IMG/VR virus record: IMGVR_UViG_3300033141_002737 | Coordinates: 1 to 61,862 of that record | Length of the DNA stretch: 61,862 nucleotides | Direction: 5' to 3' (one strand) | Source of the DNA: a virus | Taxonomy: Duplodnaviria; Caudoviricetes | Part shown: one piece after another, positions 2,905 to 61,271 of the stretch | How the letters are laid out: every line of letters starts with the position of its first letter | Position numbering within the stretch: the stretch's first letter is position 1 | The notes under the pieces: generated by a model | The model's database searches: none | Told to the model about the DNA's origin: nothing | The model's input: the letters and a program-made list of their open reading frames with translations, nothing else | Made by a program: the position numbers and the translations under genes

Positions 2905-2956
2905 ATTATAATTTATGAAATTATATTTTACAAGTGTTTTATTACAAATCATTAAG
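2905..2956 (-). promoter_or_regulatory. repeated early promoter element, copy 1
   Basis: -35 TTGTAA at 2933-2928, 17-bp spacer, -10 TATAAT at 2910-2905, conserved TAATAAAACAC upstream. Confidence 0.8.
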
Positions 2957-3160
2957 TTCAAATTCTGTATCTACAGGATGATTATATACGACAGCGGCTA
3001 AAGCATCACATAAATGTTCTATACTTGTAGAATCATTGTTGTAAGCTTTATACAAAGTTATTATATGACGTAGATATATTACCTCAGACATCTCTGTAAA
3101 GGTTAAGGTTAATTTATCTAATTGAGTAGAGGACGGTTTTATAGTAGATTTAATTTCCAT
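2942..3160 (-). CDS. small hypothetical protein
   Basis: ORF track. Confidence 0.6.
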   Translation of the reverse strand: MEIKSTIKPSSTQLDKLTLTFTEMSEVIYLRHIITLYKAYNNDSTSIEHLCDALAAVVYNHPVDTEFELNDL

Positions 3161-3163
3161 AAT

Positions 3164-3343
3164 TTATTTCTCACAATTTGTTCTTAAGGTTGTTTGTAAA
3201 TAGCCATATAAATTTATAAGCTCATCTGGAAGTGTATGATATGAAGTAGCTAATACTTTATAAAGCATTTCTGCTTCTTCTCTACTTTCAATATCTATTG
3301 TTATAGATTTAAAAATACATTTAGATTTTGATTTAAAATTCAT
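3164..3343 (-). CDS. small hypothetical protein (59 aa, MNFKSKSKCIFKSITIDIESREEAEML...)
   Basis: Hand translation; AAAGGAG RBS. Confidence 0.6.
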   Translation of the reverse strand: MNFKSKSKCIFKSITIDIESREEAEMLYKVLATSYHTLPDELINLYGYLQTTLRTNCEK

Positions 3344-3368
3344 AATTTACTCCTTTATATTTCTTTTA

Positions 3369-3545
3369 TTAATTGGCGTTTAATTTACCTAATTCTAAAT
3401 GACATTTTCCTCTATTTGATAAAGCCTCTATACATTCTGGATCATGAAATAAAACTATTGAAAAATCCTCAATAGCTTTTTTGTATTCCCCGGCTTTCAT
3501 ATAACATTCACCTCTCTTTAGGTGTGCCATTAATCCAATTTCCAT
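3369..3545 (-). CDS. mini tetratricopeptide-repeat protein (58 aa)
   Basis: MEIGLMAHLKRGECYMKAGEYKKAIEDFSIVLFHDPECIEALSNRGKCHLELGKLNAN fits the TPR consensus (RG..Y...G.Y..A..DF......DP....A..NRG); AAAGGAG RBS. Confidence 0.75.
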   Translation of the reverse strand: MEIGLMAHLKRGECYMKAGEYKKAIEDFSIVLFHDPECIEALSNRGKCHLELGKLNAN

Positions 3546-3556
3546 AATTTACTCCT

Positions 3557-3721
3557 TTATAATTTTTTACTAAGTTTAGCTATTTTAGTTCTATTACGAT
3601 TAGTAGTTTTTATGTTTTTATTCTTAACTTTTAGATTCTTAGAAATGTGAATAAGTTTAATTGCTTAAGATTCTGTAACATTTTGGTTGTTCATTACTTT
3701 TTGAATAGTTTCTTTAGTCAT
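3557..3721 (-). pseudogene. 55-codon basic ORF interrupted by TAA at codon 19
   Basis: MTKETIQKVMNNQNVTES*AIKLIHISKNL...KLSKKL*; strong RBS; the distal stop abuts the next RBS. Confidence 0.5.
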
Positions 3722-3753
3722 AATATAAAAACTCCTTATTTACTTATATTTTA

Positions 3754-3805
3754 ATTATATATTATAGAATTAAGTTTTACAAGTGTTTTATTAAGAATTA
3801 TTAAG
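3754..3805 (-). promoter_or_regulatory. repeated early promoter element, copy 2
   Basis: CTTAATAATTCTTAATAAAACAC-TTGTAA(3782-3777)-17bp-TATAAT(3759-3754). Confidence 0.85.
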
Positions 3806-3816
3806 TTTAATTTATT

Positions 3817-3850
3817 CACACTTGTAAAGTAAATAAGTATACTATATAAT
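3817..3850 (+). promoter_or_regulatory. divergent sigma70-type promoter sharing the ACACTTGTAA core
   Basis: TTGTAA 3822-3827, 17 bp, TATAAT 3845-3850. Confidence 0.75.
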
Positions 3851-3856
3851 TAAAAG

Positions 3857-3964
3857 TATATAAACATTAGTCATAAAGACTTCCCCCTTGACCTGGTACA
3901 CAGTTCTAGAACAATTTAATAGTTATCTAAGTAATAATCTTAAATTCTCTTAGATAACTTTTTT
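3857..3964 (+). ncRNA. candidate small RNA (about 108 nt)
   Basis: Bounded by a consensus promoter and an intrinsic terminator; no + strand ORF; C-rich anti-SD-like CTTCCCCCTT. Confidence 0.5.
3921..3964 (+). terminator. intrinsic terminator
   Basis: 11-bp stem AGTTATCTAAG/CTTAGATAACT followed by a T-tract. Confidence 0.7.
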
Positions 3965-3998
3965 ATTTAAATTGAATTTAATAAAGAGGAAATAGAAT

Positions 3999-4394
3999 AT
4001 GGCATTTCTAACGGATGAATTTAATTTCAAATGGCTCCTTGATGGGAAGAAGATGGAGCTATTAAATGAAATGCAATATAAACGTGAAAGTACTGGTAAG
4101 ATATATGTATTAAATAAAGGGTTTAGGACAGATGGATCAAGTATACCAAAATTTTTCTGGAGTTTTACAAATGCTCCATTTGTAGGGAAGCATAAATTTG
4201 CTGCTTTAATTCATGATTGGCTATGTCATACCAAAATTGTAAGCCGTAAAGAAGCGGATGAGATATTTAAAGAGGCTTTAGTAGAATATGGAGTTAAACG
4301 CTTTACAGTTAATTATATGTATCAAGCTGTTAAAGGTTGGAGTAAAGTATTAAAAATATTTAAGAAGATTAGATATAACAATTATGAAATTTAG
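3999..4394 (+). CDS. DUF1353-family protein
   Basis: GFRTDGSSIP...AALIHDWL...RKEADEIF motifs. Confidence 0.8.
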   Translation: MAFLTDEFNFKWLLDGKKMELLNEMQYKRESTGKIYVLNKGFRTDGSSIPKFFWSFTNAPFVGKHKFAALIHDWLCHTKIVSRKEADEIFKEALVEYGVKRFTVNYMYQAVKGWSKVLKIFKKIRYNNYEI

Positions 4395-4758
4395 TAAAAA
4401 ATTTGAAGAGGATTATCAATTTTATTTAAATAATTTAGATAAACAATTTTTAAGAAATATCTTTAAGTTACCCATTTATTGCAAGGATGGTTTATCCGCT
4501 AAAGAGGTTTTTTATTTATATGATTCGAGAGGTGTTTTAAAATCATGTAAAGATGTGGAATTGTTTAAATCTTTAATTAATATCAAGAAGAATATAAATT
4601 TACAAATAAAGATGTGGGTAGAGGGATATATAGTTTGTGGTATACCAATAAATGAGTATCTAAATTGTTTTAAGGGTCAAATTCCTGTATGGGTGAAAAA
4701 AAGTTTAGTAAATCAAATAAATAAAAAGTATAAGTTAGCTCACTTACCTACTATATAA
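4384..4758 (+). CDS. hypothetical protein
   Basis: ORF track; overlaps the upstream stop. Confidence 0.6.
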   Translation: MKFSKKFEEDYQFYLNNLDKQFLRNIFKLPIYCKDGLSAKEVFYLYDSRGVLKSCKDVELFKSLINIKKNINLQIKMWVEGYIVCGIPINEYLNCFKGQIPVWVKKSLVNQINKKYKLAHLPTI

Positions 4759-4778
4759 ATCGGTAAGAAGAGATCTTG

Positions 4779-4807
4779 GAACCCCCTTAGTAATTAAGCG
4801 GGGTTCT
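4779..4807 (+). promoter_or_regulatory. GC-rich hairpin just upstream of terL
   Basis: GAACCCC-CTTAG...TTAAG-C-GGGGTTC inverted repeat with a weak T-tail. Confidence 0.4.
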
Positions 4808-4832
4808 TAATATACTTAGAAAGGATTAAAAT

Positions 4833-6170
4833 ATGGATTGGGATTGGAACAATTTAAGTCAAGATGATTCTATTAACGTTTTATTTACTCAAATAATTAG
4901 AAATCCTTTTATCCCTGTAACGCCTACAGAAAAACAATTAGAATTTCTTAGTTGTTTTAATAAAGAGATTCTTTATGGAGGTGCGGCAGGGGGAGGAAAG
5001 TCAGCCGCTTTATTAATGGCTGCTTTAATGTTTGTAACTGTACCTGAATATAGAGCACTATTATTAAGAAGGACTTATGCAGATTTAAGTTTACCTGGAG
5101 CTCTTATAGATTTATCTAAAGAATGGTTAGAGGAAACGGATGCCCATTGGAATGAAATACATAAGCAATGGAAATTTCCATCAGGAGCTACATTAAATTT
5201 TGGATATTTAGATAACGAAAAGGCTAAATATAGGTATTTAGGAGCTCAATTTCATTTTGTAGGATTTGATGAATTAACTCAATTTACAGCATCCCAGTAT
5301 TTATATTTATTTAGTAGGAATAGGAAAATTAAGGGAGTAGATATTCCTTTAAGATTTAGAACAGCCTCTAATCCTGGAGGTATGGGACATGAATGGGTTA
5401 AACAAAGGTTTATAACTGAACGTAAACAAGGACGATTATTTATTCCAGCTAAGTTATTTGATAACCCTCATTTAGATCAAGAATCTTATGAGAAGAATTT
5501 GAATGAATTAGATCCAGTTACTAGGAAGCAATTAAAGGACGGTGATTGGAATGTCGTAGGGGCTGGAAATTTCTTTCAAAGAGATAAATTTAATATGACC
5601 GATGCTTATCCAGTAAAACTTGGAAAGGGTAGAAGTGTTAGGTATTGGGATTTAGCCGCTACAGAATCTAAAGAAGGAACTGATCCTGATTATACAGTAG
5701 GAGTTAAAATAAGAACTATAAAAGGTGAATATTGGGTTGAAGATGTAGTTAGAGGAAGATATAATCCAAGAGATTTAGAGAATGTTATTAGAAGAACTGC
5801 AGAAGAAGATGGAAAGCAGGTTTGTGTCTTTATGGAACAAGAACCTGGAAGTTCTGGAAAGATAACTATTAGTCATTTTGCTAGAAATGTCTTACAAGGA
5901 TTTTCATTTAAAGGATGTAAAACTACAGGAAGTAAAGTAGTAAGAGCTAAACCTTTCAGTGCTGCAGTAGAGAACAGTAATGTTAATATTATAAGAGCAG
6001 CTTGGAACACTAAATTTTTAGAAGAATGTATTGTATTCCCTCAAGAAGGATTTCACGATGATCAGGTAGATGCTGCAAGTGGTGCATTTGAGCAATTAAA
6101 CTTATCTGGAATTGCAGGAGTAGGGACTATTAAAGTTAATAGAGCGAGTAGTATATTAGAAGGATATTAA
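4833..6170 (+). CDS. terL: terminase large subunit
   Basis: Walker A YGGAAGGGKS, Walker B VGFDELTQ, ASNPGG coupling motif, RNase H-like YWDLA...HDDQVDA. Confidence 0.95.
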   Translation: MDWDWNNLSQDDSINVLFTQIIRNPFIPVTPTEKQLEFLSCFNKEILYGGAAGGGKSAALLMAALMFVTVPEYRALLLRRTYADLSLPGALIDLSKEWLEETDAHWNEIHKQWKFPSGATLNFGYLDNEKAKYRYLGAQFHFVGFDELTQFTASQYLYLFSRNRKIKGVDIPLRFRTASNPGGMGHEWVKQRFITERKQGRLFIPAKLFDNPHLDQESYEKNLNELDPVTRKQLKDGDWNVVGAGNFFQRDKFNMTDAYPVKLGKGRSVRYWDLAATESKEGTDPDYTVGVKIRTIKGEYWVEDVVRGRYNPRDLENVIRRTAEEDGKQVCVFMEQEPGSSGKITISHFARNVLQGFSFKGCKTTGSKVVRAKPFSAAVENSNVNIIRAAWNTKFLEECIVFPQEGFHDDQVDAASGAFEQLNLSGIAGVGTIKVNRASSILEGY

Positions 6171-8677: not shown

Positions 8678-8914
8678 ATGCCTATAATCGAACAAGTTCC
8701 AGAATTAGAAGTAACCCAAAGAGATTTAGAAATTTTAACTCTAGTTAAAGCAGGATACTCTAATATAGAGATGACTAAGATATTATTCATATCAGAAAGC
8801 ACTATTAAAACTCATCTAAGTCGTTTATATCTAGACTTTAATGTACATAGTAGATATGAATTAATTATATACCTTTGGAAATATGGAATTCCAAATATAA
8901 GAAGGAAAGGATAA
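8678..8914 (+). CDS. LuxR-type HTH transcriptional regulator
   Basis: TQRDLEILTLVKAGYSNIEMTKILFISESTIKTHL. Confidence 0.85.
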   Translation: MPIIEQVPELEVTQRDLEILTLVKAGYSNIEMTKILFISESTIKTHLSRLYLDFNVHSRYELIIYLWKYGIPNIRRKG

Positions 8915-9334: not shown

Positions 9335-9383
9335 AATTAGCTTATAATCCAATAAGAAAGCATTTTATAAGGAGTCATTAAAT

Positions 9384-9574
9384 ATGGATCCATATTTTGT
9401 AAGTGGATTAATTATTATAAATTTAATTATGTATTATGGGTACAAAAAATTTAATTTAAAGGATTATTAAAAATGACAGATATTTATATAATAAAACTAG
9501 CTTTTTTATGTATTGCTCTAATAGCTATATTATATTATGTATATAAAGAGTATAAAGAATTTAAGAAATTATAG
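9384..9574 (+). CDS. two tandem tiny membrane peptides (9384..9470, 28 aa; 9473..9574, 33 aa)
   Basis: Hand translation; AAGGAG and AAGGA RBS; each has one hydrophobic helix and a basic C-terminus. Confidence 0.45.
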
Positions 9575-9583
9575 AGGATTATA

Positions 9584-11143
9584 ATGTTTAATTTTTTAAA
9601 CAGAAAATCGAATAAGAAATCTAAGGATTTACATAGAAATAATAATAATATATATATTAGTAATGAAATTGCTACAAGAGATAGAGTAGACTTTACCAGT
9701 TTGTTAGGTTATCTTCCAGATCCAGATGAAATATTGCTTAATACTGGAAATACTTTTGATGTATATAGGAAATTAATGGTAGATTCTCAAATTAGAGCTT
9801 GTTCTAATAGTAGAAAGGCTGGTACCAAATCTTTGCTTTGGGATATAGATAAAGGGAAGGAAAATAAATCTAAATATACAAAAATTATAAAAGATTTCTA
9901 TGAACGTGATTTGGATATAGATAGTATGAATGATGCTATACTTAATGCTCCATTATTCGGGTTTCAACCTATTGAAATTATATGGGGTAGAATTGGAGAA
10001 TATATCTTACCTATAGAATTAAAACCAAAGAATCCAGAATGGTTCATGTTTGGCCCTAAAGGAGAATTAAAATTATTAACTCCAGGTAATTTCCTAACTG
10101 GAGAGGATTTACCTCAAAGGAAATTCTTAACGCCTACTTATAACGATATTAATAATAATTATTATAATCCTTATGGAGATAGATTACTTTCTAGTTGTTT
10201 CTGGCCAGCTACATTTAAGAAATCTGGATATAAATGGTGGGTAACATTCACAGAAAAATACGGAATGCCTTATATAATAGGAAAATTACCTGCAGGACAA
10301 GATCAAGAACGTCAAGGAATGTTAGATAATCTAAAAGCTATGGCAATGGATGCGGTAGCAGTTATCTCAGACGACGCTAGTGTAGAAGTCACAGGAATAA
10401 CAGGTTCATCTAATAATGCAGAATTATATAGAACCTTAATTGAATCTTGTGATGCTGCCATAGCTAAGACATTATTAGGACAGACATTAACAACAGAAGG
10501 ATCTGATAAAGGTGTAGGTTCACAAGCTTTAGGAAGAGTTCATTCTGGGATAAGGGATGATATTATACTATCAGATAAGAAATTAGTAGAGAACACACAT
10601 AATAAACTCATTCGTTGGATAGCTGAAATAAATTTCGGAATAGATACAGATCTTCCAAAATTTGAGATGTTTGAAGAAGAAGATGTTGATTTAGATTTAG
10701 CACAAAGAGATAAAATCCTTAAAGATACTGGAGTTAAATTCACAAAATCTTATATAATGAGAACATACGGATTTGAAGAGGATGATATTGAAGAGGTAGA
10801 AAGTGTTCCAGAATCTAAAGATGGGTTTAAACCTGAAGAACCTAATTCAGAGGATAAACTTAAAGAAGATAAAGAGAGTGAATTTGCAGAAAAGGGTGAA
10901 TATTATACAGATCAAATAATTAAGCAATTTTCAGATATTCAATTACAAAGTCAAATAAAAGAAGCCCTTAGTCCTGTGTTTAAGCTAATTAATTCCGCTA
11001 ATGAGTATAATGAAGTGTTAAAAGCATTAGATGGGCTTAATCCGACGATGTCTACTGTAGATATTGAAAAGCACTTAACTAAAGTATTATTTATAGCGGA
11101 ATTACTTGGAAGTAAGGATGCTAGAGATGAGGTAATTAAGTAA
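9584..11143 (+). CDS. portal protein (Mu gp29/DUF935-like)
   Basis: LPDPDEIL, NPYG..LLS..FWP..FK, FTEKYGMP, LLGQTLTT and SQALGRVH motifs. Confidence 0.92.
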   Translation: MFNFLNRKSNKKSKDLHRNNNNIYISNEIATRDRVDFTSLLGYLPDPDEILLNTGNTFDVYRKLMVDSQIRACSNSRKAGTKSLLWDIDKGKENKSKYTKIIKDFYERDLDIDSMNDAILNAPLFGFQPIEIIWGRIGEYILPIELKPKNPEWFMFGPKGELKLLTPGNFLTGEDLPQRKFLTPTYNDINNNYYNPYGDRLLSSCFWPATFKKSGYKWWVTFTEKYGMPYIIGKLPAGQDQERQGMLDNLKAMAMDAVAVISDDASVEVTGITGSSNNAELYRTLIESCDAAIAKTLLGQTLTTEGSDKGVGSQALGRVHSGIRDDIILSDKKLVENTHNKLIRWIAEINFGIDTDLPKFEMFEEEDVDLDLAQRDKILKDTGVKFTKSYIMRTYGFEEDDIEEVESVPESKDGFKPEEPNSEDKLKEDKESEFAEKGEYYTDQIIKQFSDIQLQSQIKEALSPVFKLINSANEYNEVLKALDGLNPTMSTVDIEKHLTKVLFIAELLGSKDARDEVIK

Positions 11144-11144: not shown

Positions 11145-11342
11145 TTATATATTTATTTTTAATAATTTAATTTGATCTAATAACATCTTTACCTGACCGG
11201 CTTTATATAATAAAGCTTCTACATATACAGTAGACTTTCTATTACTATCTATAAATTCAGTTCGTGTTCTTTCATCGACTTGAATTAATTCTTGTTGTAC
11301 AGCTATTAAAAGTTCTTTACAGGCTTCTCGAATTTTATCCAT
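11145..11342 (-). CDS. small hypothetical protein (antisense cassette)
   Basis: ORF track; AAGGAG RBS. Confidence 0.65.
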   Translation of the reverse strand: MDKIREACKELLIAVQQELIQVDERTRTEFIDSNRKSTVYVEALLYKAGQVKMLLDQIKLLKINI

Positions 11343-11355
11343 TTTAAATACTCCT

Positions 11356-11547
11356 TTAATTTAATTCTTGAGAATCAAATTCATATTCTTTGCCCTCTAC
11401 AGGGATAGTACCTGCTTGTACATTTTTTAGAGCTATAGTTTGAGCCAATTGCTTATTGTATCCAGCTACTGTAATTATTTGTTCCTTATAGTAAATATCG
11501 GCTATTACTTTTATTTTGTATTTTTGAGGTTTAGCTAATTTATTCAT
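11356..11547 (-). CDS. small hypothetical protein (antisense cassette)
   Basis: ORF track; AAGGAG RBS. Confidence 0.65.
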   Translation of the reverse strand: MNKLAKPQKYKIKVIADIYYKEQIITVAGYNKQLAQTIALKNVQAGTIPVEGKEYEFDSQELN

Positions 11548-11560
11548 TTAAAATTACTCC

Positions 11561-11704
11561 TTAAAGTATTGAACATAGAACTACTATACAACCTATGAAT
11601 ATTGTATATACTAAAATTAAAAACATTATAAAACCCATATTGCATGCAGCATCTTTTAAATCATCAAAAAATTCTATAAGTTTAATGTTTAAGGGTTTAT
11701 TCAT
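11561..11704 (-). CDS. small membrane protein (47 aa)
   Basis: Hand translation; AAAGGAG RBS; C-terminal hydrophobic helix. Confidence 0.55.
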   Translation of the reverse strand: MNKPLNIKLIEFFDDLKDAACNMGFIMFLILVYTIFIGCIVVLCSIL

Positions 11705-11716
11705 ATATTACTCCTT

Positions 11717-11905
11717 TCAATTATTTAATCCAATAATTTTTTCATAATATTTACAAATTTGTTTTCTTTGGGTTACTTTCTTTCCTGTTAATTTACATTC
11801 AGATTTATTATAAGGTTGAGTGTATACAAGAAAAAAATATGGATCATAATATTTACAATCTTTGCATATAGGTTCTTTATTAGTTATCCTATCATTTATT
11901 TTCAT
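11717..11905 (-). CDS. small Cys-rich protein (CxxC...C...C)
   Basis: ORF track 11717..11956; ATG at 11905 overlaps the upstream gene end and is the likelier start. Confidence 0.55.
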   Translation of the reverse strand: MKINDRITNKEPICKDCKYYDPYFFLVYTQPYNKSECKLTGKKVTQRKQICKYYEKIIGLNN

Positions 11906-12020
11906 AAACATTCCATTCCTTCCAATATGGACATTCAGTATTATTACATAGTTCACAATTCCAAGTAGCTGAATGATATTTAGATTCGGCTTCTATAGGT
12001 TTAGGGATACAATCATTCAT
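11892..12020 (-). CDS. small Cys-rich protein (42 aa, ...WNCELCNNTECPYW...)
   Basis: Hand translation; AAGGTGG RBS; tiles between its neighbours. Confidence 0.5.
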   Translation of the reverse strand: MNDCIPKPIEAESKYHSATWNCELCNNTECPYWKEWNVYENK

Positions 12021-12507
12021 TATTCAACCACCTTATATTTCGTATTCGCTGCTCATTATCTATATAAGATTCTCGATTAGGTATTTTAATTCCTTCATTT
12101 AATTTACGTATTACAATTATAGATAACTTACACTTATCCTTTAAGGCACTAAATTCGTTATTATAACAACCTTCACATTTATAATTTCTTTGATAACAAT
12201 GTAATTCAGATTCCAAAAGATAATCCCGCTTAAATGAGGTGATATTTCCAAATCTTGAATCCAGTCTAGTATTCCAATCCTTTACAAATTCATCTGGATT
12301 ATTAATTACTATACAAGTTCTTATATAATACTTTTGGCGTAATTTATCATAACAGGGTAATTTAATTAAGCTCTTATATTTAGCGTATAAAGCTTTATTT
12401 AATATGGTGCGCATATAACTAGGAGCATTTCGAATTAAAGTTTTGAAATACATTTTTTCAAAATATCCTTGAGATATAAAATCATTTACAGTTAAATTTT
12501 CAATCAT
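12013..12507 (-). CDS. hypothetical protein with C-terminal Cys cluster (CY...CEGC...C)
   Basis: ORF track. Confidence 0.65.
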   Translation of the reverse strand: MIENLTVNDFISQGYFEKMYFKTLIRNAPSYMRTILNKALYAKYKSLIKLPCYDKLRQKYYIRTCIVINNPDEFVKDWNTRLDSRFGNITSFKRDYLLESELHCYQRNYKCEGCYNNEFSALKDKCKLSIIVIRKLNEGIKIPNRESYIDNEQRIRNIRWLNNE

Positions 12508-12524
12508 AATTAAAATTAATCCTT

Positions 12525-12779
12525 TTATAGTACAAGAGAAGAATAATCAAAATCCTTATGTAAAATATTATTTATTAATATGCGTTCTAATGAATGGGAT
12601 GATCTATCTAAAGAGAACATAGGTAAGTGTCTAATATAGTCCATATTAAAATCATTATTTCTAAGAATCATTAATGCTTGTCGTCTTTTACAATTTAAGT
12701 AAGAATTTGATTTTAATTTCTTACAATTTGAATTACAATAAGTATTGCAAAAATGTTTACCTTCTATATCAATACTCAT
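12525..12779 (-). CDS. small Cys-rich hypothetical protein
   Basis: ORF track; CxxxCxxxC...C. Confidence 0.6.
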   Translation of the reverse strand: MSIDIEGKHFCNTYCNSNCKKLKSNSYLNCKRRQALMILRNNDFNMDYIRHLPMFSLDRSSHSLERILINNILHKDFDYSSLVL

Positions 12780-12803
12780 AAATAGAATTTTCCTTTAATT
12801 TAT

Positions 12804-12950
12804 TTAATCTTGAGCGAAGTGTATATCATTCTCTAGCATAAGAATATAATTTTTTATTAATCCTTTTTGTATTTTATTATCTTCACTAAGAAGACTTAAT
12901 TTTTGCTCTTCAATCATTGCTCTTAATGTTGATTTTTTTAATTTATACAT
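12804..12950 (-). CDS. first gene of the cassette (48 aa, MYKLKKSTLRAMIEEQ...)
   Basis: Hand translation; AAAGGA RBS directly behind promoter copy 3. Confidence 0.55.
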   Translation of the reverse strand: MYKLKKSTLRAMIEEQKLSLLSEDNKIQKGLIKNYILMLENDIHFAQD

Positions 12951-12982
12951 TTTTATGTTTCCTTTGTTTAACTTATATTTTA

Positions 12983-13034
12983 ATTATAAATTATAAAATT
13001 GTATTTTACAAGTGTTTTATTACGAGTTATTAAG
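12983..13034 (-). promoter_or_regulatory. repeated early promoter element, copy 3
   Basis: TTGTAA 13011-13006, 17 bp, TATAAT 12988-12983. Confidence 0.85.
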
Positions 13035-13057
13035 TTTAATTTATAAAGGTATAATAA

Positions 13058-13750
13058 ATGCCAAGTAAAGTAGAAATAGCAGCCTTATTTAAACTCCCTC
13101 CAGAGAAGATTATAGAATACCTAAAAGACAAGGATTATATAGTAACTCAAAATTGGCAAGAGTTATTAGAACGTTCAGAAAATAGAGCCTTCACTATTGC
13201 AGGAGTAATGAAAAAGGATATTCTTAAGGATGCTAAAGGAATTATAGATAAATCCATAGAAGAAGGTAAATCCTTTCATGCGTTTCAAAAAGAATTTAAA
13301 CCTAGAATGCAAGTTAAGGGTTGGGAAGTATCTACACATAGACTTAAAACTATATATAGAGTTAATACCGATATAGCTTATTCTACTGGAAGATACAGAG
13401 AACAAGAAGCCGTCAAAGAGTATGCGCCTTATTGGCAATATATAGCTGTAATGGATAGTAATACTAGACCCACTCATGCTGATTGGAATGGTTTAGTTTT
13501 TAAGGCCGATGATCCATTTTGGGATTATGCCTACCCTCCTAATGGATTTAATTGTAGATGTACGGTAAGAACATATACAGAAAGACGATTTGAAAGAGTA
13601 AATTTACCTATAGAGGATTCTAAAGGTAAAATTAAGACTGAAACTGTAGAGATAGCTGGAAAATCAATTAAAACTAAATCTTATAAAGGTAAGGTTATAG
13701 ATCCAGGATGGGACTATAATCCAGGAAAAGAATATTTAAAGGTTAAATAA
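13058..13750 (+). CDS. head morphogenesis protein (Mu gpF/SPP1 gp7-like)
   Basis: RAFTIAG, RLKTIYRVN, YIAVMDSNTRPTH and YPPNGFNCRC motifs. Confidence 0.92.
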   Translation: MPSKVEIAALFKLPPEKIIEYLKDKDYIVTQNWQELLERSENRAFTIAGVMKKDILKDAKGIIDKSIEEGKSFHAFQKEFKPRMQVKGWEVSTHRLKTIYRVNTDIAYSTGRYREQEAVKEYAPYWQYIAVMDSNTRPTHADWNGLVFKADDPFWDYAYPPNGFNCRCTVRTYTERRFERVNLPIEDSKGKIKTETVEIAGKSIKTKSYKGKVIDPGWDYNPGKEYLKVK

Positions 13751-13754
13751 AGTT

Positions 13755-38202: not shown

Positions 38203-38230
38203 GAAATATTAATTTTTAAGTATAAAAGGA

Positions 38231-43243: not shown

Positions 43244-43245
43244 AG

Positions 43246-43938: not shown

Positions 43939-43953
43939 AAAGGAAATTTTATT

Positions 43954-44328
43954 ATGTACAAGATAAGAAAGACATTTGAAATAGCCGGAGCTCATCAATT
44001 AAAATTAGGATATGATAGTCCTTGCTGTAGATTGCATGGGCATAATTGGGTAATAACTGTAGAAATAACTTCTAAAAATTTAGATAGGGACGGTATGATA
44101 TTAGATTTTAAGGCGTTTAAACAATTATTAACCCAAAGAATTCATGCAAAGTTAGATCATCAAAATTTAAATAAGATATTAAGTATTAATCCAACCGCTG
44201 AAAATATATCTAAATTTATATTCGATAATGTGAATTTTGCACTATCTAATGCGTATCCTGAACCGATTCGATGTACCAGAGTTATAGTAAAAGAATCGTT
44301 AAATAATGAAGCGGAGTATTCAGAATGA
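43954..44328 (+). CDS. queD: 6-carboxytetrahydropterin synthase
   Basis: AH.L...C.RLHGHNW, LDHQNLN, NPTAENI. Confidence 0.93.
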   Translation: MYKIRKTFEIAGAHQLKLGYDSPCCRLHGHNWVITVEITSKNLDRDGMILDFKAFKQLLTQRIHAKLDHQNLNKILSINPTAENISKFIFDNVNFALSNAYPEPIRCTRVIVKESLNNEAEYSE

Positions 44329-44975: not shown

Positions 44976-44977
44976 AA

Positions 44978-50488: not shown

Positions 50489-50832
50489 GCTTATTTACTA
50501 AAAATACAACTAATCAAACTTCTAAAAAAGATTTAAAAATTTTAGAGCTTATAAGGAGAAGGCGCCTTCAGATATTAGTTCATAGTTGTATTTATTATAG
50601 GTTTAATAGTTCTTTAATAGATGACGCTACTTTTGATAAGTTTGCTAAAGAATTAGTAAGTCTTCAAAAAAAATATCCAAAGTATGCTAAGAAAGTTAGA
50701 TATTCAGAAGCTTTTGAAGGTTTTGAAGGTAGTACAGGATATAGACTTCCAATGGGGGATATAAATATAGTATCAAAGGCTGAACAATTATTACGATATG
50801 CAAATAATAAGGAATTTGTTAATAATGTATGA
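50485..50832 (+). CDS. stand-alone NAD-dependent DNA ligase N-terminal (Ia) domain protein
   Basis: HSCIYY...LIDDATFD...EL..LQKKYP; no adenylation domain. Confidence 0.7.
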   Translation: MSLFTKNTTNQTSKKDLKILELIRRRRLQILVHSCIYYRFNSSLIDDATFDKFAKELVSLQKKYPKYAKKVRYSEAFEGFEGSTGYRLPMGDINIVSKAEQLLRYANNKEFVNNV

Positions 50833-51709: not shown

Positions 51710-52735
51710 ATGTCAAAATTATCATTAGCACTAAAATATAGACCAAAAAATTTCAATGAAGTTGTAGGTCAGGATAATCAAATACAGATATTGCAATATC
51801 AAATTAAAACAGATACAACTAAAAATGCTTATTTATTCGTAGGTCCGGCTGGAACGGGTAAGACTACTTGCGCTAGAATATTTGCAAACGAATTAAATGA
51901 AGGGAAGGGTAGTCCTATAGAAGTAGATGCGGCTAGAAATAATGGAGTAGATGATGTAAGAAATATAATAGATAATTCAAGTTTTAGATCTATTGATAGT
52001 AAATATAAGGTGTATATTATAGATGAATGTCATATGTTTTCTATTGGAGCGTGGAATGCGATGCTAAAACTTTTAGAAGAATCCCCTGAGTTAACTGTAT
52101 TTATATTATGCACCACAGATCCACGAAAAATTCCAGCAACTATATTAAGTAGAGTGCAAAGATATGATTTTAGAAAGATTTTGTATAAGGTTGTAGTAGA
52201 TAGATTAAAATATATTATTGCAAATGAGGATACAGATGATAAAGATAATAAAATAATAGTTAGTGAGGAGGCTATTGAATACATAGCTAGATTAGCTGAA
52301 GGAGGGATGAGAGATGCTATATCTATGTTAGACAAGTGCTTAAGTTTAGATATTAATTTAGATATAAAGAAGGTGGTTAAAGCTTTAGGTATTTCAAATT
52401 ATGATAATATGTTTGATTTATTAGGCGCCTTAAATAGAAAAGATAAAAAAGCTTTAATAGAGATAATAGAAGATTTGGATAATATTGGAATAGATTTAAA
52501 GCAATTTGTAAAACAATTTTATATATTTTTAATAGATATGAATAAATATTATGAATTAGAAGATTTTATATGGGTTAAAATTCCTCCCACTTTTAAAGAA
52601 GATATAGAAGGATTTGAAGCCAACTTTTGCATAGAGTTAATGGAAGAATTTATGCAGTTTTATAATCAAATTAAATGGGAGGATAATATTAAGCAGTTAT
52701 TAATAGGAAAGGGGTTATTATTATGCAAATCATAG
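51710..52735 (+). CDS. dnaX: clamp loader ATPase (Pol III gamma/tau-like)
   Basis: LALKYRP, GPAGTGKTT, IIDECHM, TILSR, GGMRDA. Confidence 0.95.
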   Translation: MSKLSLALKYRPKNFNEVVGQDNQIQILQYQIKTDTTKNAYLFVGPAGTGKTTCARIFANELNEGKGSPIEVDAARNNGVDDVRNIIDNSSFRSIDSKYKVYIIDECHMFSIGAWNAMLKLLEESPELTVFILCTTDPRKIPATILSRVQRYDFRKILYKVVVDRLKYIIANEDTDDKDNKIIVSEEAIEYIARLAEGGMRDAISMLDKCLSLDINLDIKKVVKALGISNYDNMFDLLGALNRKDKKALIEIIEDLDNIGIDLKQFVKQFYIFLIDMNKYYELEDFIWVKIPPTFKEDIEGFEANFCIELMEEFMQFYNQIKWEDNIKQLLIGKGLLLCKS

Positions 52736-53550
52736 GACAAAAGGATTTATTTAATGAGGTAAATAGATGGATAGAGAAGGATAATATACCTAGATTTATA
52801 TTACTTTCTGGATCTAAATATTCAGGTAAAACATATTTGGCAAAAGAAATCGCTAAACTAATATCTAAAGAAATAATAGAAGTAGATCATAAAGCAGACA
52901 CTATAAGAGATATGATTAATACAGCGTATACGATATCAGATAAAGTTATATATATAGTAGATAATGCTCAATTAATGTCAGAGAGTGCTAAAAATGCTTT
53001 ATTAAAAGTAACTGAAGAGCCACCTAGAAAAGCTTATATAGTTTTAGTAGTAGAGGATTTTAAATATATTCCAGATACTTTAATAAGTCGGGCTAATGTT
53101 TTACAAATTAAAAAATACAGTAAGGATGAAATTCAGAATTATATTAAAGGTTTAGATGTGTTTAAGTCTTCAGATTTGGATATGTTATTAGATATTTGTG
53201 TAAGCCCAGCAGAAGTTAATTATTTTTTAGATAATAATTTAAAGAGTTTTTATGATTTAGTTAATACTATTGTATTAAAATTAGATATATTATCTGGAGT
53301 TGAGGCATTTAAATTAAGTAAAAAGATTAAATTAAAGAAGGATGAAGTTGGGTTTGATTTAAGATTTGTAATGAATAAGGTAAAAACATTAACCTTAAAA
53401 TATGAATTAGAGGATAGTTTACCTTCAGGTTTTGGATATTTATTAACCGCAATTACAAATAAAGGAATAAAAGATTTAGATATAACAGGTATAAACCAAA
53501 TATCTGTATTTGATAAGTGGATATTAGATATAAAAAATATAGAAATTTAA
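52723..53550 (+). CDS. holB: clamp loader delta-prime-like subunit
   Basis: IIGQ, NALLKVTEEPP, TLISR. Confidence 0.85.
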   Translation: MQIIGQKDLFNEVNRWIEKDNIPRFILLSGSKYSGKTYLAKEIAKLISKEIIEVDHKADTIRDMINTAYTISDKVIYIVDNAQLMSESAKNALLKVTEEPPRKAYIVLVVEDFKYIPDTLISRANVLQIKKYSKDEIQNYIKGLDVFKSSDLDMLLDICVSPAEVNYFLDNNLKSFYDLVNTIVLKLDILSGVEAFKLSKKIKLKKDEVGFDLRFVMNKVKTLTLKYELEDSLPSGFGYLLTAITNKGIKDLDITGINQISVFDKWILDIKNIEI

Positions 53551-53564
53551 AGAAGGATTTAAGA

Positions 53565-54530
53565 ATGAATTTAGCAGAATTAAAGCAAAAATTAATAAAT
53601 AATAATTTAGATTCATTATATATATTTTTTGGAGAAGAAATTGGAATAATGGATAAATATATAGAAAGTATTAAGAAAAAATCTAATAAGCATATAATAA
53701 GAATAGAGTCTTTGAAAGAATTATTATTAAAATTAAATATGAAATCTCTATTAAATTCTGAAAATATATATATATTAAAAGAAGATAAAAATCTACTTAA
53801 AAATGAGGAATTGATAAATAAATTACAGGATTTAATATTAAAATCCTCAGGTGCGCATATTGTTATTTTAGTTTATTCTAAATTAGATAAGCGTGGAAAG
53901 TTCTATAGGAAAACTAAGGATTTTAGTATAGAATTTGAAAAATTAAATACAAATCAATTGATAAATTATGTTTTGAAGGAATTAGGGCTAAGACGTGAAT
54001 ATTCAGAGGAATTAATTGAATATTGTGATAATAATTATAATAGATTAATGTTTGAAATAGATAAATTAAAATGTTTAGCTAAGGCGTATAAAATTAAAAA
54101 TGAAGAAGCTTTTTTAGAAGGAATGAAAAGTGGATTAATTTCTAAAAGTCCTAAATCATTAATCTTTAATTTCATAGATGCAGTATTAAAGCGGGATATG
54201 GAATTAAGTTTTAAATTATTTCAAGACTTAAAAAATTTAAAAACAAGTGAGATGTTAATCTTAAGTTTATTATATACTAATTTTCGTAATGTTTTATTAA
54301 TACAAGGAAGTGAAAAACCTACTCAGGAATTTACAGGACTTACAAACTCTCAAATATATATGATAAAAGAAAAGGTAGGTTATTATTATATAGAGGAGCT
54401 GATTAAAATTTTAGGAATAATTCAAAAAGTAGAATCCGGGATTAAGACGGGTAAAATAGATTCTGAGATTGCTATCGAATATAGTTTATTAAAGATAATA
54501 AGAGAAGAGGATAAAAATGGAGATAATTAA
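53565..54530 (+). CDS. holA: clamp loader delta-like subunit
   Basis: LYIFFGEE, KLDKRGKF, EIDKL, IFNFIDA, IKTG; ATG at 53565 follows GAAGGA. Confidence 0.85.
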   Translation: MNLAELKQKLINNNLDSLYIFFGEEIGIMDKYIESIKKKSNKHIIRIESLKELLLKLNMKSLLNSENIYILKEDKNLLKNEELINKLQDLILKSSGAHIVILVYSKLDKRGKFYRKTKDFSIEFEKLNTNQLINYVLKELGLRREYSEELIEYCDNNYNRLMFEIDKLKCLAKAYKIKNEEAFLEGMKSGLISKSPKSLIFNFIDAVLKRDMELSFKLFQDLKNLKTSEMLILSLLYTNFRNVLLIQGSEKPTQEFTGLTNSQIYMIKEKVGYYYIEELIKILGIIQKVESGIKTGKIDSEIAIEYSLLKIIREEDKNGDN

Positions 54531-57728: not shown

Positions 57729-58451
57729 ATGGTTAAATTAATATGTTTATTAGGAGTTATAGGAAGCGGTAAAACATATAGAGCAGAAAAATTAGTTAAA
57801 GAGGAAGGATTTATTCATATTAATTTTGCGGATGAACTTAGAGAAATATCTTGGGAGATTTTAAAATGGAGACCCAAAAATGAGCAAGAATATGAGGACT
57901 TTAAGAATGGTTTAATATATATTTCTTCAATGGATGGTCGTGTAAATGGAAGGCAATTCCTTCAAAATTTAGGTATGAGTATAAGAAAGAGATATCCTAA
58001 TTTTTTTACTGAGTGTTGGAGGGCTAAAGCTATTCATATACTGGAAACAGATACAAGCGTAGTATGTTCAGATTTGAGGTTTATTAATGAATTAGAGTAT
58101 GTATTAGATATACAATGTTCAAATATAAATTATTGTAGTTTAAATAAGGAATTTATTTTTTGTGATTATAGAAGTAATAGATATAAAGCTAATGATAACC
58201 ATGAATCGGAAAGATTAGCTCAAGGAATTTTAATCGATGGATATAAAGATGGGGATAGATTATATTATAATTATTTTAAAAACTATAAGAAAGAAAGGAG
58301 ATTAAATAAAATGGCAAGAGTATTGATTAGTTTACCTGAGGTGTTATTAAAAAAGATTGATGAAATAGTTAAAAAGGATTATGGAATTAGATCTGAATTT
58401 ATTAGACAAGCATGTCGAGAATTTATCGCGAGATATAAGAAAGAGAGTTAG
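57729..58451 (+). CDS. deoxynucleoside monophosphate kinase reading in frame into a ribbon-helix-helix domain
   Basis: GVIGSGKT, FADELR, RQFLQNLG, SDLRF.NE, HESE; last 46 aa are RHH-like. Confidence 0.8.
   Translation: MVKLICLLGVIGSGKTYRAEKLVKEEGFIHINFADELREISWEILKWRPKNEQEYEDFKNGLIYISSMDGRVNGRQFLQNLGMSIRKRYPNFFTECWRAKAIHILETDTSVVCSDLRFINELEYVLDIQCSNINYCSLNKEFIFCDYRSNRYKANDNHESERLAQGILIDGYKDGDRLYYNYFKNYKKERRLNKMARVLISLPEVLLKKIDEIVKKDYGIRSEFIRQACREFIARYKKES
58311..58451 (+). CDS. CopG/NikR-like ribbon-helix-helix protein (internal start)
   Basis: AAAGGAG RBS then MARVLISLPEVLLKKIDE...RSEFIRQACREF. Confidence 0.75.
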   Translation: MARVLISLPEVLLKKIDEIVKKDYGIRSEFIRQACREFIARYKKES

Positions 58452-59341: not shown

Positions 59342-59365
59342 TAAAAGGAGTGAATTATAATTAAA

Positions 59366-59599
59366 GTGCGCATATATGGAATATACGAAATAGAAGGATG
59401 TAAAGACAAATTTGGTTTAGTTACCCAAATAGAAGGTGATTTTAAAACCAATCGTTTAATTACAGGTTTATTATTTTATGAAGATACTAATGAAATGGAC
59501 TGCATGTTTACCATGAGGGAAAATTATATTACTAAAGATATTGACTATTCTTATACACCTAACACGCATGTTTTAAAATTATATAAAAAGGAGATATAG
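59366..59599 (+). CDS. hypothetical protein
   Basis: ORF track. Confidence 0.5.
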   Translation: MRIYGIYEIEGCKDKFGLVTQIEGDFKTNRLITGLLFYEDTNEMDCMFTMRENYITKDIDYSYTPNTHVLKLYKKEI

Positions 59600-59779
59600 A
59601 TGGAAATTAAATTAGATTTAGAAAGCGCATTTGTGCCTGTAATTATTAGGTTGGAATCACAGGCAGAGGTATATCAGTTAAAGCATTGCCTAAACCATTA
59701 TAAACCTAATGCTGGTAATCAGGAGCGTCCTGTAGAGGAATTTAGACAAAATTTTATCATGAAGTTGAAAAAATTTTAA
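59600..59779 (+). CDS. small hypothetical protein (59 aa, MEIKLDLESAFVPVIIRLESQAEV...)
   Basis: Hand translation; AAAAGGAG RBS. Confidence 0.6.
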   Translation: MEIKLDLESAFVPVIIRLESQAEVYQLKHCLNHYKPNAGNQERPVEEFRQNFIMKLKKF

Positions 59780-59798
59780 TAATATAACAAATTAAGGG

Positions 59799-59827
59799 TT
59801 GTTTTATTTATGTTAATACTGTATAAT
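59799..59827 (+). promoter_or_regulatory. possible sigma70-type promoter
   Basis: TTGTTT-17bp-TATAAT. Confidence 0.5.
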
Positions 59828-59897
59828 AAATATAATACCTCTAATAACAGTATTCGCGTTTTTACAAGTAAGTCGATATTGCGAGGGAGGATAAATA

Positions 59898-60356
59898 TTG
59901 GGGATTAGATGTAGCCATAAAAGACGAATATATAAAATTGAAAAATTATATCCTACAAAGGAATTCGAGGAGCGATTAGTTTTTCAAAGTAAGTGTGAAT
60001 ATTGCGATGAATATGTATTAAAATTAGTTTTTTATAGAGAAGATGATAGTAAGTGGACTCAAAAATATATTAAGGATAAAGCTAAAGAAAAATATTTAGC
60101 TCTAAAGCCTGAGATAATGTGTATCTATAATGCTGATTTACATCCTGAATTAGATATAGGTGTAAATTATTTTGATGGAGCTAATTATACAGTAAGGAAA
60201 TTACATAATTCAGCAATAGTTGAACATTATATATCACCAGATATGATATATAATATTCAACTTATGCTAATGATAAAATTAATAAGTAAGAAATTTAAAC
60301 AAGCTAAACAATTTATTGAAATAGCTTATTTAGTTCTATTTTTAAAGTTTCAATAG
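59898..60356 (+). CDS. hypothetical Zn-binding protein (possible late regulator)
   Basis: GGGAGG RBS with TTG start; CSH...CEYC; lies at the end of the early region. Confidence 0.55.
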   Translation: MGIRCSHKRRIYKIEKLYPTKEFEERLVFQSKCEYCDEYVLKLVFYREDDSKWTQKYIKDKAKEKYLALKPEIMCIYNADLHPELDIGVNYFDGANYTVRKLHNSAIVEHYISPDMIYNIQLMLMIKLISKKFKQAKQFIEIAYLVLFLKFQ

Positions 60357-60537
60357 TATTTAAAGCATTTTCATATAATGTTTTGTAATTAACCGTAGAT
60401 TTAGAGAGTTCTATTTGGTATCTAATCCAAGCAGAACCACCTAATGTACTAAATAATTTTCTTTGATCTTTAAATATGTTAATAGTTACTTGGACTGTTT
60501 CTTTTAATTTAGGTCTACCGATTTTATTATTTTCCAT
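60313..60537 (-). CDS. ribbon-helix-helix-like DNA-binding protein
   Basis: GRPK...VQVTINI...Q...LGGSAWIR..IE. Confidence 0.6.
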   Translation of the reverse strand: MENNKIGRPKLKETVQVTINIFKDQRKLFSTLGGSAWIRYQIELSKSTVNYKTLYENALNTIETLKIELNKLFQ

Positions 60538-60540
60538 TAA

Positions 60541-60717
60541 TTAACTCCTTAATTTATTAAGTAATTCAGTAAATTCAGGACTTTTGTGCAATCCTAATCT
60601 TGAGGCTTCTTTAGCTACAAGAGCACAAAGTAGCATATCTTTAGTGGTTTGAGAATGTATAATAGCTTCTTCATTTATTATATCTCTACATTGATCAATT
60701 AAATTATTTAATTTCAT
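60541..60717 (-). CDS. small hypothetical protein (58 aa, MKLNNLIDQCRDII...)
   Basis: Hand translation; AAGGAG RBS. Confidence 0.55.
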   Translation of the reverse strand: MKLNNLIDQCRDIINEEAIIHSQTTKDMLLCALVAKEASRLGLHKSPEFTELLNKLRS

Positions 60718-60997
60718 CCATATACTCCTTTATTAATTTATTGTATAAATAGACTACAAATTTTAGATGATTTTCGGAAGAACTTGAGATAGTTATATTT
60801 AGCTTAGTATATTCTGTATATGTTCGATCTATTATAGTACATTTATTATCTAATATAATTGCTGTAAATTCCGCTATAAGAGGGCTAGGAACACTAAAAA
60901 ATGTTTTATCTTTATTAAGCATTGTCGATATACATCTACAATTAAAATCTTGCATATTTTTATGCTCCTTAACTATAATTTTCTTGTAGAGCTTCAT
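60704..60997 (-). CDS. hypothetical protein
   Basis: ORF track. Confidence 0.55.
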   Translation of the reverse strand: MKLYKKIIVKEHKNMQDFNCRCISTMLNKDKTFFSVPSPLIAEFTAIILDNKCTIIDRTYTEYTKLNITISSSSENHLKFVVYLYNKLIKEYMDEIK

Positions 60998-61190
60998 AAC
61001 TCATTTGATTAGCGTGTTTATTATAGTGTTGAATTTTTTCTTCAAGATTTATCATTTGAGATTGTTGTTTTAAAGTGTAAGTATAAGATCCTAATATAAG
61101 AGAATCTTTAAATTCAGGATGTTCAATTTTCCAATCTTTATCTAGTTTCCTTAATTTACTTAATTTAGATCTCATTGAAGAAATTTTCAT
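60969..61190 (-). CDS. first gene of an antisense cassette, hypothetical
   Basis: ORF track; AAAGGA RBS behind promoter copy 8. Confidence 0.65.
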   Translation of the reverse strand: MKISSMRSKLSKLRKLDKDWKIEHPEFKDSLILGSYTYTLKQQSQMINLEEKIQHYNKHANQMSYEALQENYS

Positions 61191-61219
61191 TTGGGTTCCT
61201 TTATTTAAATTATACTTTA

Positions 61220-61271
61220 ATTATATATTATAAAACTATATTTTACAAGTGTTTTATTAAGATTTATTAAG
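61220..61271 (-). promoter_or_regulatory. repeated early promoter element, copy 8
   Basis: TTGTAA 61248-61243, 17 bp, TATAAT 61225-61220. Confidence 0.85.

Follow-up and report, generated by a model that had tools for sequence, protein, structure and literature searches.

The 61,862-nt genome of a tailed virus (Duplodnaviria; Caudoviricetes), held in IMG/VR as record IMGVR_UViG_3300033141_002737 and here called the window, carries eight copies of a 52-bp promoter-like element in which two CTTAATA heptamers precede a TTGTAA -35 box and a TATAAT -10 box. Six of the copies start every minus-strand gene block in the genome, and the other two start its replication module. We interpret the copies, with a probability of about 0.6, as a private class of early or constitutive promoters for the host RNA polymerase, which would head accessory cassettes resembling morons and the promoter early stem-loop elements (PeSLs) of T4-type phages. 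Three features are distinctive: one near-identical module is common to all accessory blocks and the replication genes, a precise heptamer pair lies upstream of each putative promoter, and inserts in the structural operon are near-exclusively antisense throughout the clade to which the virus belongs.

Eight copies of one promoter-like element

A sequence-only reading of the window had placed eight copies, and inspection of the sequence together with a motif and profile scan of the genome confirms each of them in position and strand. An nhmmer profile built from the eight copies recovers exactly those eight in the window (E 1.2e-12 to 1.1e-5); the same profile gives a partial ninth match at 3818-3850(+) with E 0.004, and the next best match has E 2.4.

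2905-2956, minus strand: copy 1, inside block A, followed by a mini open reading frame (ORF) of 21 codons and ORFs 2783 down to 809; nhmmer E 5.6e-10
3754-3805, minus strand: copy 2, heads block A with an 18-codon first ORF, back to back with 3822-3850(+); nhmmer E 7.5e-12
12983-13034, minus strand: copy 3, heads block B; nhmmer E 2.9e-12
23063-23114, minus strand: copy 4, heads cassette C; nhmmer E 2.1e-12
24184-24235, minus strand: copy 5, heads cassette D, -10 box TATACT; nhmmer E 1.2e-12
29453-29504, plus strand: copy 6, head of the replication module (a 120-aa ORF, then a helicase); nhmmer E 1.9e-12
32229-32280, plus strand: copy 7, -35 box TTTAAA, followed by the genes for the replication initiator, DnaC-like loader and DnaB; nhmmer E 1.1e-5
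61220-61271, minus strand: copy 8, heads block E; nhmmer E 1.1e-11
3822-3850, plus strand: ninth copy, core only (ACAC-TTGTAA-17-TATAAT), faces the packaging and late genes

The exact string TTGTAA-N17-TATAAT is present seven times in the window against 0.25 expected, a count that none of 100 shuffled sequences reaches. With at most one mismatch, AAAACACTTGTAAA is also present seven times, against 0.10 expected, and the heptamer pair with at most two mismatches is present 19 times, against 7.5. The -35 and -10 boxes are 17 bp apart in eight of eight copies, as had been claimed. The consensus TTGTAA-17-TATAAT holds for most copies, with the exception already recorded at 32229 (TTTAAA as -35 box) and a further one at 24184, where the -10 box reads TATACT. 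An ATG with a Shine-Dalgarno-like sequence lies 29-37 nt past the -10 box in every copy. The 52 bp originally delimited do repeat, but the repeat extends to 66-99 nt and takes in a conserved leader up to the ribosome-binding site: identity is 74-88% over 99 nt among six same-strand copies, and 78-94% over 66-80 nt between the 29453 copy, taken in inverted orientation, and six others. Two sub-families of flank can be told apart among the copies, …AAATTAAA and …AAACTCAT.

At the level of sequence, the element is built like a strong sigma-70-type promoter, and both the hexamer spacing (17 ± 1 bp) and the position of the upstream block fit such a promoter with an UP element. Generic promoter and terminator scans were uninformative in this AT-rich genome, which yielded fewer promoter-like sites than its shuffles. 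Searches of the window for sigma-factor region 2 and for the Q antiterminator (PF06530) gave no match, and since the window holds no sigma-factor or phage RNA polymerase candidate, the host polymerase must read the putative promoters. When the eight 88-nt elements were folded, seven had z between -1.3 and +1.3, i.e. no stem-loop, and the 3754 copy pairs only through back-to-back -35 regions (an 11-bp inverted repeat).

Viewed from the core-only ninth copy, the heptamers of copy 2 are inverted and fall at about -68 to -52. The leader between the ninth copy and the first plus-strand gene (3999) is about 110 nt long; in the relatives described below it has short AT-rich matches only. It contains a terminator-like hairpin:

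3921-3966, plus strand: terminator-like hairpin, 11-bp stem followed by U6, in the leader before the gene at 3999; -20.8 kcal/mol, z -2.7

This layout of promoter and leader hairpin recalls lambda pR'-tR', so late expression might need read-through of the terminator.

Antisense cassettes and their cargo

The six minus-strand copies head all five minus-strand blocks of the window, and 25 of the 25 called minus-strand ORFs lie downstream of a copy.

809-3721, minus strand: block A, 13 ORFs of 39-75 aa and two mini-ORFs (18 and 21 codons), with two promoter copies; GC content 24.4%
11145-12950, minus strand: block B, six ORFs (48-164 aa; greedy call), between Portal_Mu (9584-11143) and Phage_Mu_F (13058-13750)
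22852-23031, minus strand: cassette C, one 59-aa ORF, between DUF2460 (22431-22805) and the L-like gene (23137-23913)
23990-24151, minus strand: cassette D, one 53-aa ORF, between the L-like gene and NlpC/P60 (24248-24577)
60313-61190, minus strand: block E, four ORFs of 58-97 aa, after the replication module and, on the circular map, before the plus-strand ORFs that precede block A

The ORF listing has an extra 47-aa ORF in block B, at 11561-11704. The sequence-only reading had counted six cassettes, one for each minus-strand copy; the 2905 copy in fact lies inside the block begun by the 3754 copy, leaving five blocks. It had also described the cassettes as wedged between late genes, which is right for portal and Mu F, DUF2460 and L-like, and L-like and NlpC/P60, but for these three junctions only. 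Blocks B, C and D are thus the only ones inside the late region and take up about 2.1 kb of its roughly 25 kb. A cassette proposed between terS and terL has to be withdrawn: the ORF at 3999-4394, probably taken for terS, is a DUF1353 gene, and the gap at 4759-4832 before terL holds no cassette.

The cargo consists of ORFs of 39-164 aa, mostly soluble, and a Shine-Dalgarno-like 4-mer precedes 22 of the 25 minus-strand ORFs. Cassette GC content is 22.8-24.9%, against 29.1-33.2% in the late genes and 27.1% in the replication module. Judged by these features, the cassettes are genuine genes that are foreign in composition. As the earlier description of unrelated small ORFs implied, the cargo has no paralogues in the window, and we found no homologues in the relatives. 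None of 20 cargo ORFs had a significant match in PHROGs and none of ten a significant match in Pfam, and the largest cargo protein (164 aa) matched only itself among 5.8 billion proteins, with no usable match in the ESM Atlas. This protein and the capsid protein are recorded on three contigs each. Given this lack of matches, a role in host takeover or anti-defence is conjecture based on where the ORFs lie and how small they are; the approximately 25 ORFan proteins nonetheless form a defined list of candidates for such functions. The 74-aa protein of block E was suspected to be a ribbon-helix-helix (RHH) protein; AlphaFold2 (single sequence) gave an all-helical model with a predicted local distance difference test score (pLDDT) of 74, and Pfam no match.

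Around ORFs that are dissimilar, cassettes C and D have about 85 nt in common at the end with the promoter and about 70 nt at the opposite end, where the shared stretch takes in a hairpin and the last codons. The flank beside the promoter provides the ribosome-binding site of the next late gene, TTTAATTTATAAAGG preceding both the Mu F and the L-like genes. Among the five blocks, one has a clear terminator, two have weak hairpins and two have none; block B has no terminator, and none is convincing for A or E.

22802-22831, minus strand: cassette C terminator, 9-bp stem followed by U6; -14.9 kcal/mol, z -3.4
23909-23942, strand not assigned: degenerate copy of the cassette C hairpin at the 3' end of cassette D; -11.9 kcal/mol on the plus strand, -4.8 on the minus strand

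Having no terminator, block B would send its transcript into the portal gene. Together with the missing clear terminators of A and E, this raises the question of whether antisense RNA is the main product, serving to silence or delay the late operon, with the small ORFs incidental. Transcripts antisense to structural genes are described in virulent Pseudomonas phages, and moron-like single-gene units as well as antisense transcripts have already been reported from virulent phages (PMC10914365). Such a role for the blocks is nevertheless very unlikely in our estimation. The Shine-Dalgarno-like sequences speak for translation, the ORFs tile the blocks with short gaps although long open frames are rare at 28% GC, and the cassette C terminator, directly after its ORF on the minus strand, would stop read-out. 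Furthermore, two copies appear placed to drive plain sense transcription of replication genes, and the three internal cassettes cover only a small share of the late region.

The same junctions in related phages

Isolated phages include no close relative: a megablast of 25 kb gave no match, and terL and portal matches were all below 60% identity. A portal-based locus search in IMG/VR returned nothing; alignment of the capsid protein succeeded instead, yielding relatives at 57-77% identity on IMG/VR contigs and on contigs of metagenome-assembled genomes (MAGs) in GTDB. Of the seven closest MAG contigs, six carry the label Melainabacteria, Gastranaerophilales or Cyanobacteriota. These relatives, with GC contents of 33-40%, have only the morphogenesis module in common with the window.

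We measured the gaps between conserved late genes in 11 genomes. Portal and Mu F are separated by 1 nt in one relative (L080), whose late operon is cassette-free, and by 1914 nt in the window. DUF2460 and L-like (g50|g52) overlap by 1 nt (-1) in two of six genomes, the others having gaps of 331 (window), 517, 913 and 1920 nt, and L-like and NlpC (g52|g54) overlap by 4 nt (-4) in three of six, the others having 334 (window), 522 and 721 nt. Six further late-gene junctions vary among the relatives between filled and tight (g40|g41, g41|g42, g42|g43, g44|g45, g46|g47 and g49|g50), and the g47|g49 row was left out of the count for its partial tape-measure match. The portal and Mu F genes and the tail-tip genes are thus normally adjacent, as had been assumed from known phages, and by these alignments the cassettes are insertions placed precisely between the stop codon of one plus-strand gene and the start codon of the next.

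Across the 11 genomes, the longest ORF of the filled junctions from portal to NlpC is on the minus strand in 21 of 22 cases and on the plus strand in one (relative R2, g50|g52); nine more gaps of 173-872 nt have no ORF of at least 50 aa. Between terL and portal, where ORFs of at least 70 aa were counted, the longest ORF is on the minus strand in four genomes and on the plus strand in three. The sequence-only reading had proposed exchangeable cargo, and the comparison bears this out to the extent that the junctions occupied in the window are empty or differently filled in the relatives, mostly antisense, rather than holding identical, fixed cargo.

The relative R1 (L129, contig G001:C5) carries a tyrosine integrase gene on its contig (68209-68676), pointing to a temperate phage, and its antisense inserts in the late operon include two identified genes: a sodium:dicarboxylate symporter between terL and portal (3941-5350, minus strand; E 3.5e-114) and a Cof-type HAD hydrolase between two head-tail genes (12926-13921, minus strand; E 5e-41). 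These inserts call to mind classical morons, which are expressed from a repressed prophage or carrier state for the benefit of the host; the shared promoter of the window would then be constitutive in the lysogeny phase and not an early lytic promoter. Inserts between adjacent genes with their own promoter, a different GC content and sometimes a terminator do fit the description of morons (PMC3594210). The complete window genome, on the other hand, has no tyrosine integrase or resolvase and has a full replisome and nucleotide-metabolism genes, its cargo consists of small ORFans rather than host-like genes, and the same promoter-like element heads a replication module, which one would expect to be silent in a quiescent prophage. 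We therefore consider a classical moron function for the window's cassettes distinctly unlikely.

The 52-bp profile found no match in the relatives examined. There, antisense inserts begin at extended -10 promoters (TGnTATAAT) that directly adjoin the next late gene, and R1 has five related AT-rich 31-nt repeats near insert starts. The architecture is thus clade-wide, and the long near-identical module is private to the window genome. A multi-copy element was found nowhere in IMG/VR, in GTDB genomes or, among the matches listed, in metagenomes, all of which gave single matches only. Considered as true copies, these single matches were ruled out as chance by re-scoring: among the matches listed, the best outside match reaches 24.7 bits, compared with 35-44 bits for seven window copies and 21.9 for the 32229 copy. 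A 100-nt version of the element searched against isolated phages gave AT-rich chance matches only (E 0.9). A separate kind of repeat occurs in another relative, L130 (G002:C86), where families of GC-rich hairpin repeats, e.g. TTAATTGCCGCGTGGGCTGAAGCCCAC, lie in intergenic gaps.

Upstream heptamers and candidate binding proteins

With the -10 box at -12 to -7, the heptamers occupy -58 to -52 and -48 to -42 and are followed by AAACAC. Over the eight copies, mismatch to the consensus is 3.6% in the distal heptamer, 5.4% in the proximal heptamer and 0% in AAACAC, close to the 4.2% of the -35 box and the 2.1% of the -10 box; it rises to 22.8% in the 17-nt spacer, 16.7% in the 3-nt heptamer spacer and 25-37% in the flanks. 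The low mismatch of the heptamers and AAACAC indicates that the upstream block is constrained like the core boxes.

This profile also bears on how the copies arose. At 66-99 nt and 74-94% identity they are long enough for homologous exchange, cassettes C and D have both ends in common, the flank sub-families suggest copying between sites, and the confinement of the element to this genome despite the existence of capsid relatives suggests recent spread. All of this would be in order if the repeat were primarily a recombination or mobility element, the conserved end of a mobile cassette comparable to a PeSL mini-circle or a miniature inverted-repeat transposable element (MITE), with its promoter-like sequence secondary. 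We saw no terminal inverted repeats or target-site duplications, however, and the search of the window that covered integrases and resolvases found no transposase or recombinase for cassette mobility. Conservation of the -35, -10 and -58 to -36 segments with free spacers follows the logic of a promoter rather than uniform identity. A primary role in mobility is accordingly unlikely, and it would be compatible with, rather than exclusive of, a private promoter class.

UP elements are A/T-rich blocks at about -60 to -38 with two subsites. The heptamer block may be such a two-subsite, UP-like element contacted by the C-terminal domains (CTDs) of the RNA polymerase alpha subunits, or it may be the operator of a phage regulator, and either reading fits. 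The repeats had been taken for a shared operator; that they are conserved like the -35 and -10 boxes agrees with a functional site, but the site may serve polymerase alpha instead. An inverted heptamer pair also lies 16-18 nt upstream of two more TTGTAx-17-TATAAT promoter-like sequences, at 3822 (the ninth copy) and at 38232, and a weaker relative of the core lies near the end of the replication module.

38197-38260, plus strand: inverted heptamer pair (one mismatch) 18 nt from TTGTAT-17-TATAAT, upstream of the gene at 38318, with a geometry like that of the ninth copy
59799-59827, plus strand: TTGTTT-17-TATAAT, weaker core-promoter relative, upstream of the gene at 59898

The gene downstream of the 38232 promoter-like sequence (38318-39007, plus strand) encodes a 229-aa protein with long acidic, GAA-rich repeats (E/Q/D runs) and K-rich 18-nt repeats.

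If a phage protein binds the heptamers, three candidates can be named in the window.

8678-8914, plus strand: stand-alone NarL/GerE-type helix-turn-helix (HTH) protein of 78 aa, candidate heptamer binder; Pfam GerE E 1.5e-14
36930-37265, plus strand: XRE-type HTH protein of 111 aa, second candidate regulator; Pfam HTH_3 E 3.2e-10
58317-58433, plus strand: HicB/RHH-like C-terminus (aa 193-235), weakest candidate; RHH_1 19.4 bits, E 0.0035, under the Pfam cut-off

Against the PDB, the 8678-8914 protein matches the DNA-binding domains of VraR, NarL and GerE (E 7.6e-9 and weaker). The weak RHH tail belongs to a protein resembling deoxynucleoside monophosphate kinases (57729-58451, plus strand). 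Four MAGs that hold relatives have 6-17 heptamer pairs per genome compared with 3-9 for a reversed control, giving no clear host motif.

Short direct repeats one helical turn apart, with one copy directly upstream of an O-like replication initiator gene, could also suggest iterons, or replication or partition sites bound by the initiator encoded beside the 32229 copy. Each site has two heptamers only, however, the pairs are spread across nine or ten sites, and their fixed distance to a -35/-10 pair and a ribosome-binding site is the geometry of a promoter rather than an origin. An origin function is extremely improbable on these grounds.

Comparison with known systems

In T4-type myoviruses, PeSLs are described as repeats in which an AT-rich upstream region and a strong sigma-70-like promoter lead into a Shine-Dalgarno sequence and the beginning of an ORFan (Arbiol et al. 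2010, PMC2839356). They are placed at the most variable spots, a few of them inside virion modules, and are proposed to allow gain, loss and replacement of small genes (PMC2839356; Comeau et al. 2014, PMC4122927). The window elements share the repeated promoter-like sequence with its AT-rich upstream part, Shine-Dalgarno sequence and start codon, and they likewise stand upstream of ORFans at variable sites. The likeness to PeSLs that had been drawn from the sequence thus holds for function, but the element itself has no stem-loop in seven of eight copies; hairpins lie instead at the far ends (3') of two cassettes or ahead of one copy. Other differences are that the window has 8-10 copies, compared with about 50 in PeSL phages; it has a precise heptamer pair instead of a generic AT-rich tract; its cassettes are antisense to the surrounding operon; the genome is that of a 62-kb siphovirus with a Mu-like head and not of a T4-like myovirus; and recombination at the repeats was not observed, no motif-bearing relative having been found.

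Morons of the lambdoid phages HK97 and HK022 are described as added DNA between adjacent genes, with its own promoter, sometimes a terminator, and deviant GC content (Cumby et al. 2012, PMC3594210). The window inserts likewise lie between genes that are adjacent in relatives and differ in GC content; a promoter-like element heads five of five blocks, and a clear terminator follows one. Morons are defined by expression from a repressed prophage, however, whereas the window has no integrase or resolvase, its cassettes share one promoter-like element with replication genes, and its cargo consists of tiny ORFans. With no PeSL stem-loop in seven of eight copies and no sign of lysogeny, the cassettes are full members of neither group.

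The early 'UP/-35/TGn/-10' promoters of T4 are reported as a very strong family for host polymerase whose consensus extends into the region contacted by the alpha CTDs (Hinton 2010, PMC2988021). The window element resembles them in appearing to be a phage-specific family with a consensus reaching well upstream of -35; it differs in having no TGn extended -10 and in having two exact heptamers in place of A/T tracts. Stoperators of cluster A mycobacteriophages lie within transcription units, where they block elongation. They and the heptamers have in common a short asymmetric site, repeated genome-wide, that could be bound by one phage regulator, but the window heptamers are at fixed positions upstream of promoters and their binder is putative.

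A model for the putative promoter class

Under the preferred interpretation, host RNA polymerase with its primary sigma factor would recognise the TTGTAA -35 box, 17-bp spacer and TATAAT -10 box. The conserved block at -58 to -36, with its two CTTAATA heptamers 10 bp apart and AAACAC, would be a protein-contact site, either UP-like for the alpha CTDs or an operator able to switch off the whole class, and the downstream leader would supply the Shine-Dalgarno sequence. From two copies transcription would enter the replication module, and from six it would enter every minus-strand block. The cassettes would behave as self-contained transcription units that may be gained, lost and swapped at intergenic hot spots while leaving the late operon unbroken, including the three that appear to sit in an operon combining a Mu-like head with a tail tip resembling those of gene transfer agents (GTAs) and lambda. 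A class-wide off switch would also relieve head-on collisions with late transcription.

Several points weigh against this interpretation. Promoter activity and early timing are both read from sequence, and the -35 box agrees with TTGACA at only four of six positions. The link to Melainabacteria comes from the MAG binning of relatives, and the promoter rules of the host are assumed. The element occurs in no relative examined and in no collection scanned (for metagenomes, among the matches listed), and being absent elsewhere it offers no view of exchange between phages that share the promoter; variable junctions were seen only in relatives with other promoters. The similarity of the copies could partly reflect recent duplication or gene conversion instead of selection; for the heptamers, the uneven conservation profile speaks against this explanation. 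A convincing terminator is present in one cassette only, and direct repeats that flank essential genes should be a deletion hazard.

A more elaborate version of the model is conceivable but doubtful. Here each entering cassette would carry or acquire a module of about 100 nt comprising heptamers, promoter and leader, a portable, operator-controlled 'expression socket', and one regulator, for example the 8678-8914 protein, would turn off the scattered accessory and replication genes together. This would clear the late operon of head-on traffic, and the late operon itself would start at the ninth copy and be released by read-through of the leader terminator. If true, the arrangement would be a combined regulon and exchange system, functionally akin to PeSLs and integron cassettes, built antisense into the structural operon of a siphovirus that belongs to a clade with relatives assigned to Melainabacteria by binning.

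Morons, PeSLs and strong early promoters are established concepts, and an uncultured host limits immediate testability. The window provides a countable example, outside the T4-like and lambdoid models, of how a structural operon takes up accessory genes. Should the heptamer block be an operator, a dispersed set of genes would be under the control of one protein; should the repeats drive exchange, they would mark the entry points of new host-takeover or anti-defence genes into a phage lineage with relatives repeatedly assigned by binning to uncultured Melainabacteria.

Genome organisation and other features

The window is a complete virus record, with direct terminal repeats according to IMG/VR and a CheckV completeness of 100%. 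An exact 114-nt terminal direct repeat (1-114 = 61749-61862) implies a unique length of 61,748 bp, and a plus-strand ORF crosses the terminal-repeat junction (61542 to 372). Overall GC content is 28.3%, and scans of the window for tRNAs and against Rfam gave zero matches. The plus strand carries nearly all genes. The late module, at about 4.0-29.4 kb, begins with terL, the Portal_Mu portal gene, Phage_Mu_F and a virion-morphogenesis (tail_S) gene, continues with protease-like, scaffold, capsid and tape-measure genes, and ends with the tail-tip genes DUF2460, L-like, NlpC/P60 and J-like. Two tiny hydrophobic ORFs of about 28 and 33 codons, both with ribosome-binding sites, occupy the 249 nt before the portal gene (9335-9583, plus strand). 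A strong terminator closes the module.

29415-29443, plus strand: strong intrinsic terminator closing the late operon, with promoter copy 6 following 10 nt downstream; -13.1 kcal/mol, z -3.1

The replication and nucleotide module extends from 29.5 to 60.4 kb. Its replication genes encode a helicase, an O-like initiator, DnaC- and DnaB-like proteins, primase, SSB, DNA polymerase, a sliding clamp with its loader, and a UvsX-like recombinase; its nucleotide genes comprise NrdD/G, ThyX, dUTPase and a 7-deazaguanine set. No tyrosine integrase or resolvase was found in the complete genome, which together with its own replisome and the nucleotide-metabolism and 7-deazaguanine genes points to a phage that is probably virulent. 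The 7-deazaguanine set (42311-45553, plus strand) consists of Tgt/DpdA-like, QueC-like, PTPS (QueD-type), QueE-like radical-SAM and GTP cyclohydrolase genes and suggests modified DNA.

For a 115-aa ORF at 50485-50832 (plus strand), the match to NAD-dependent DNA ligase is confined to the N-terminal Ia domain (E 7e-31), the adjoining ligase body being absent. The sliding clamp, three clamp-loader genes and the UvsX-like recombinase (45556-46686 and 51710-54530, plus strand) make an unusual mix of modules for a siphovirus of 62 kb whose head is Mu-like and whose tail tip is GTA/lambda-like.

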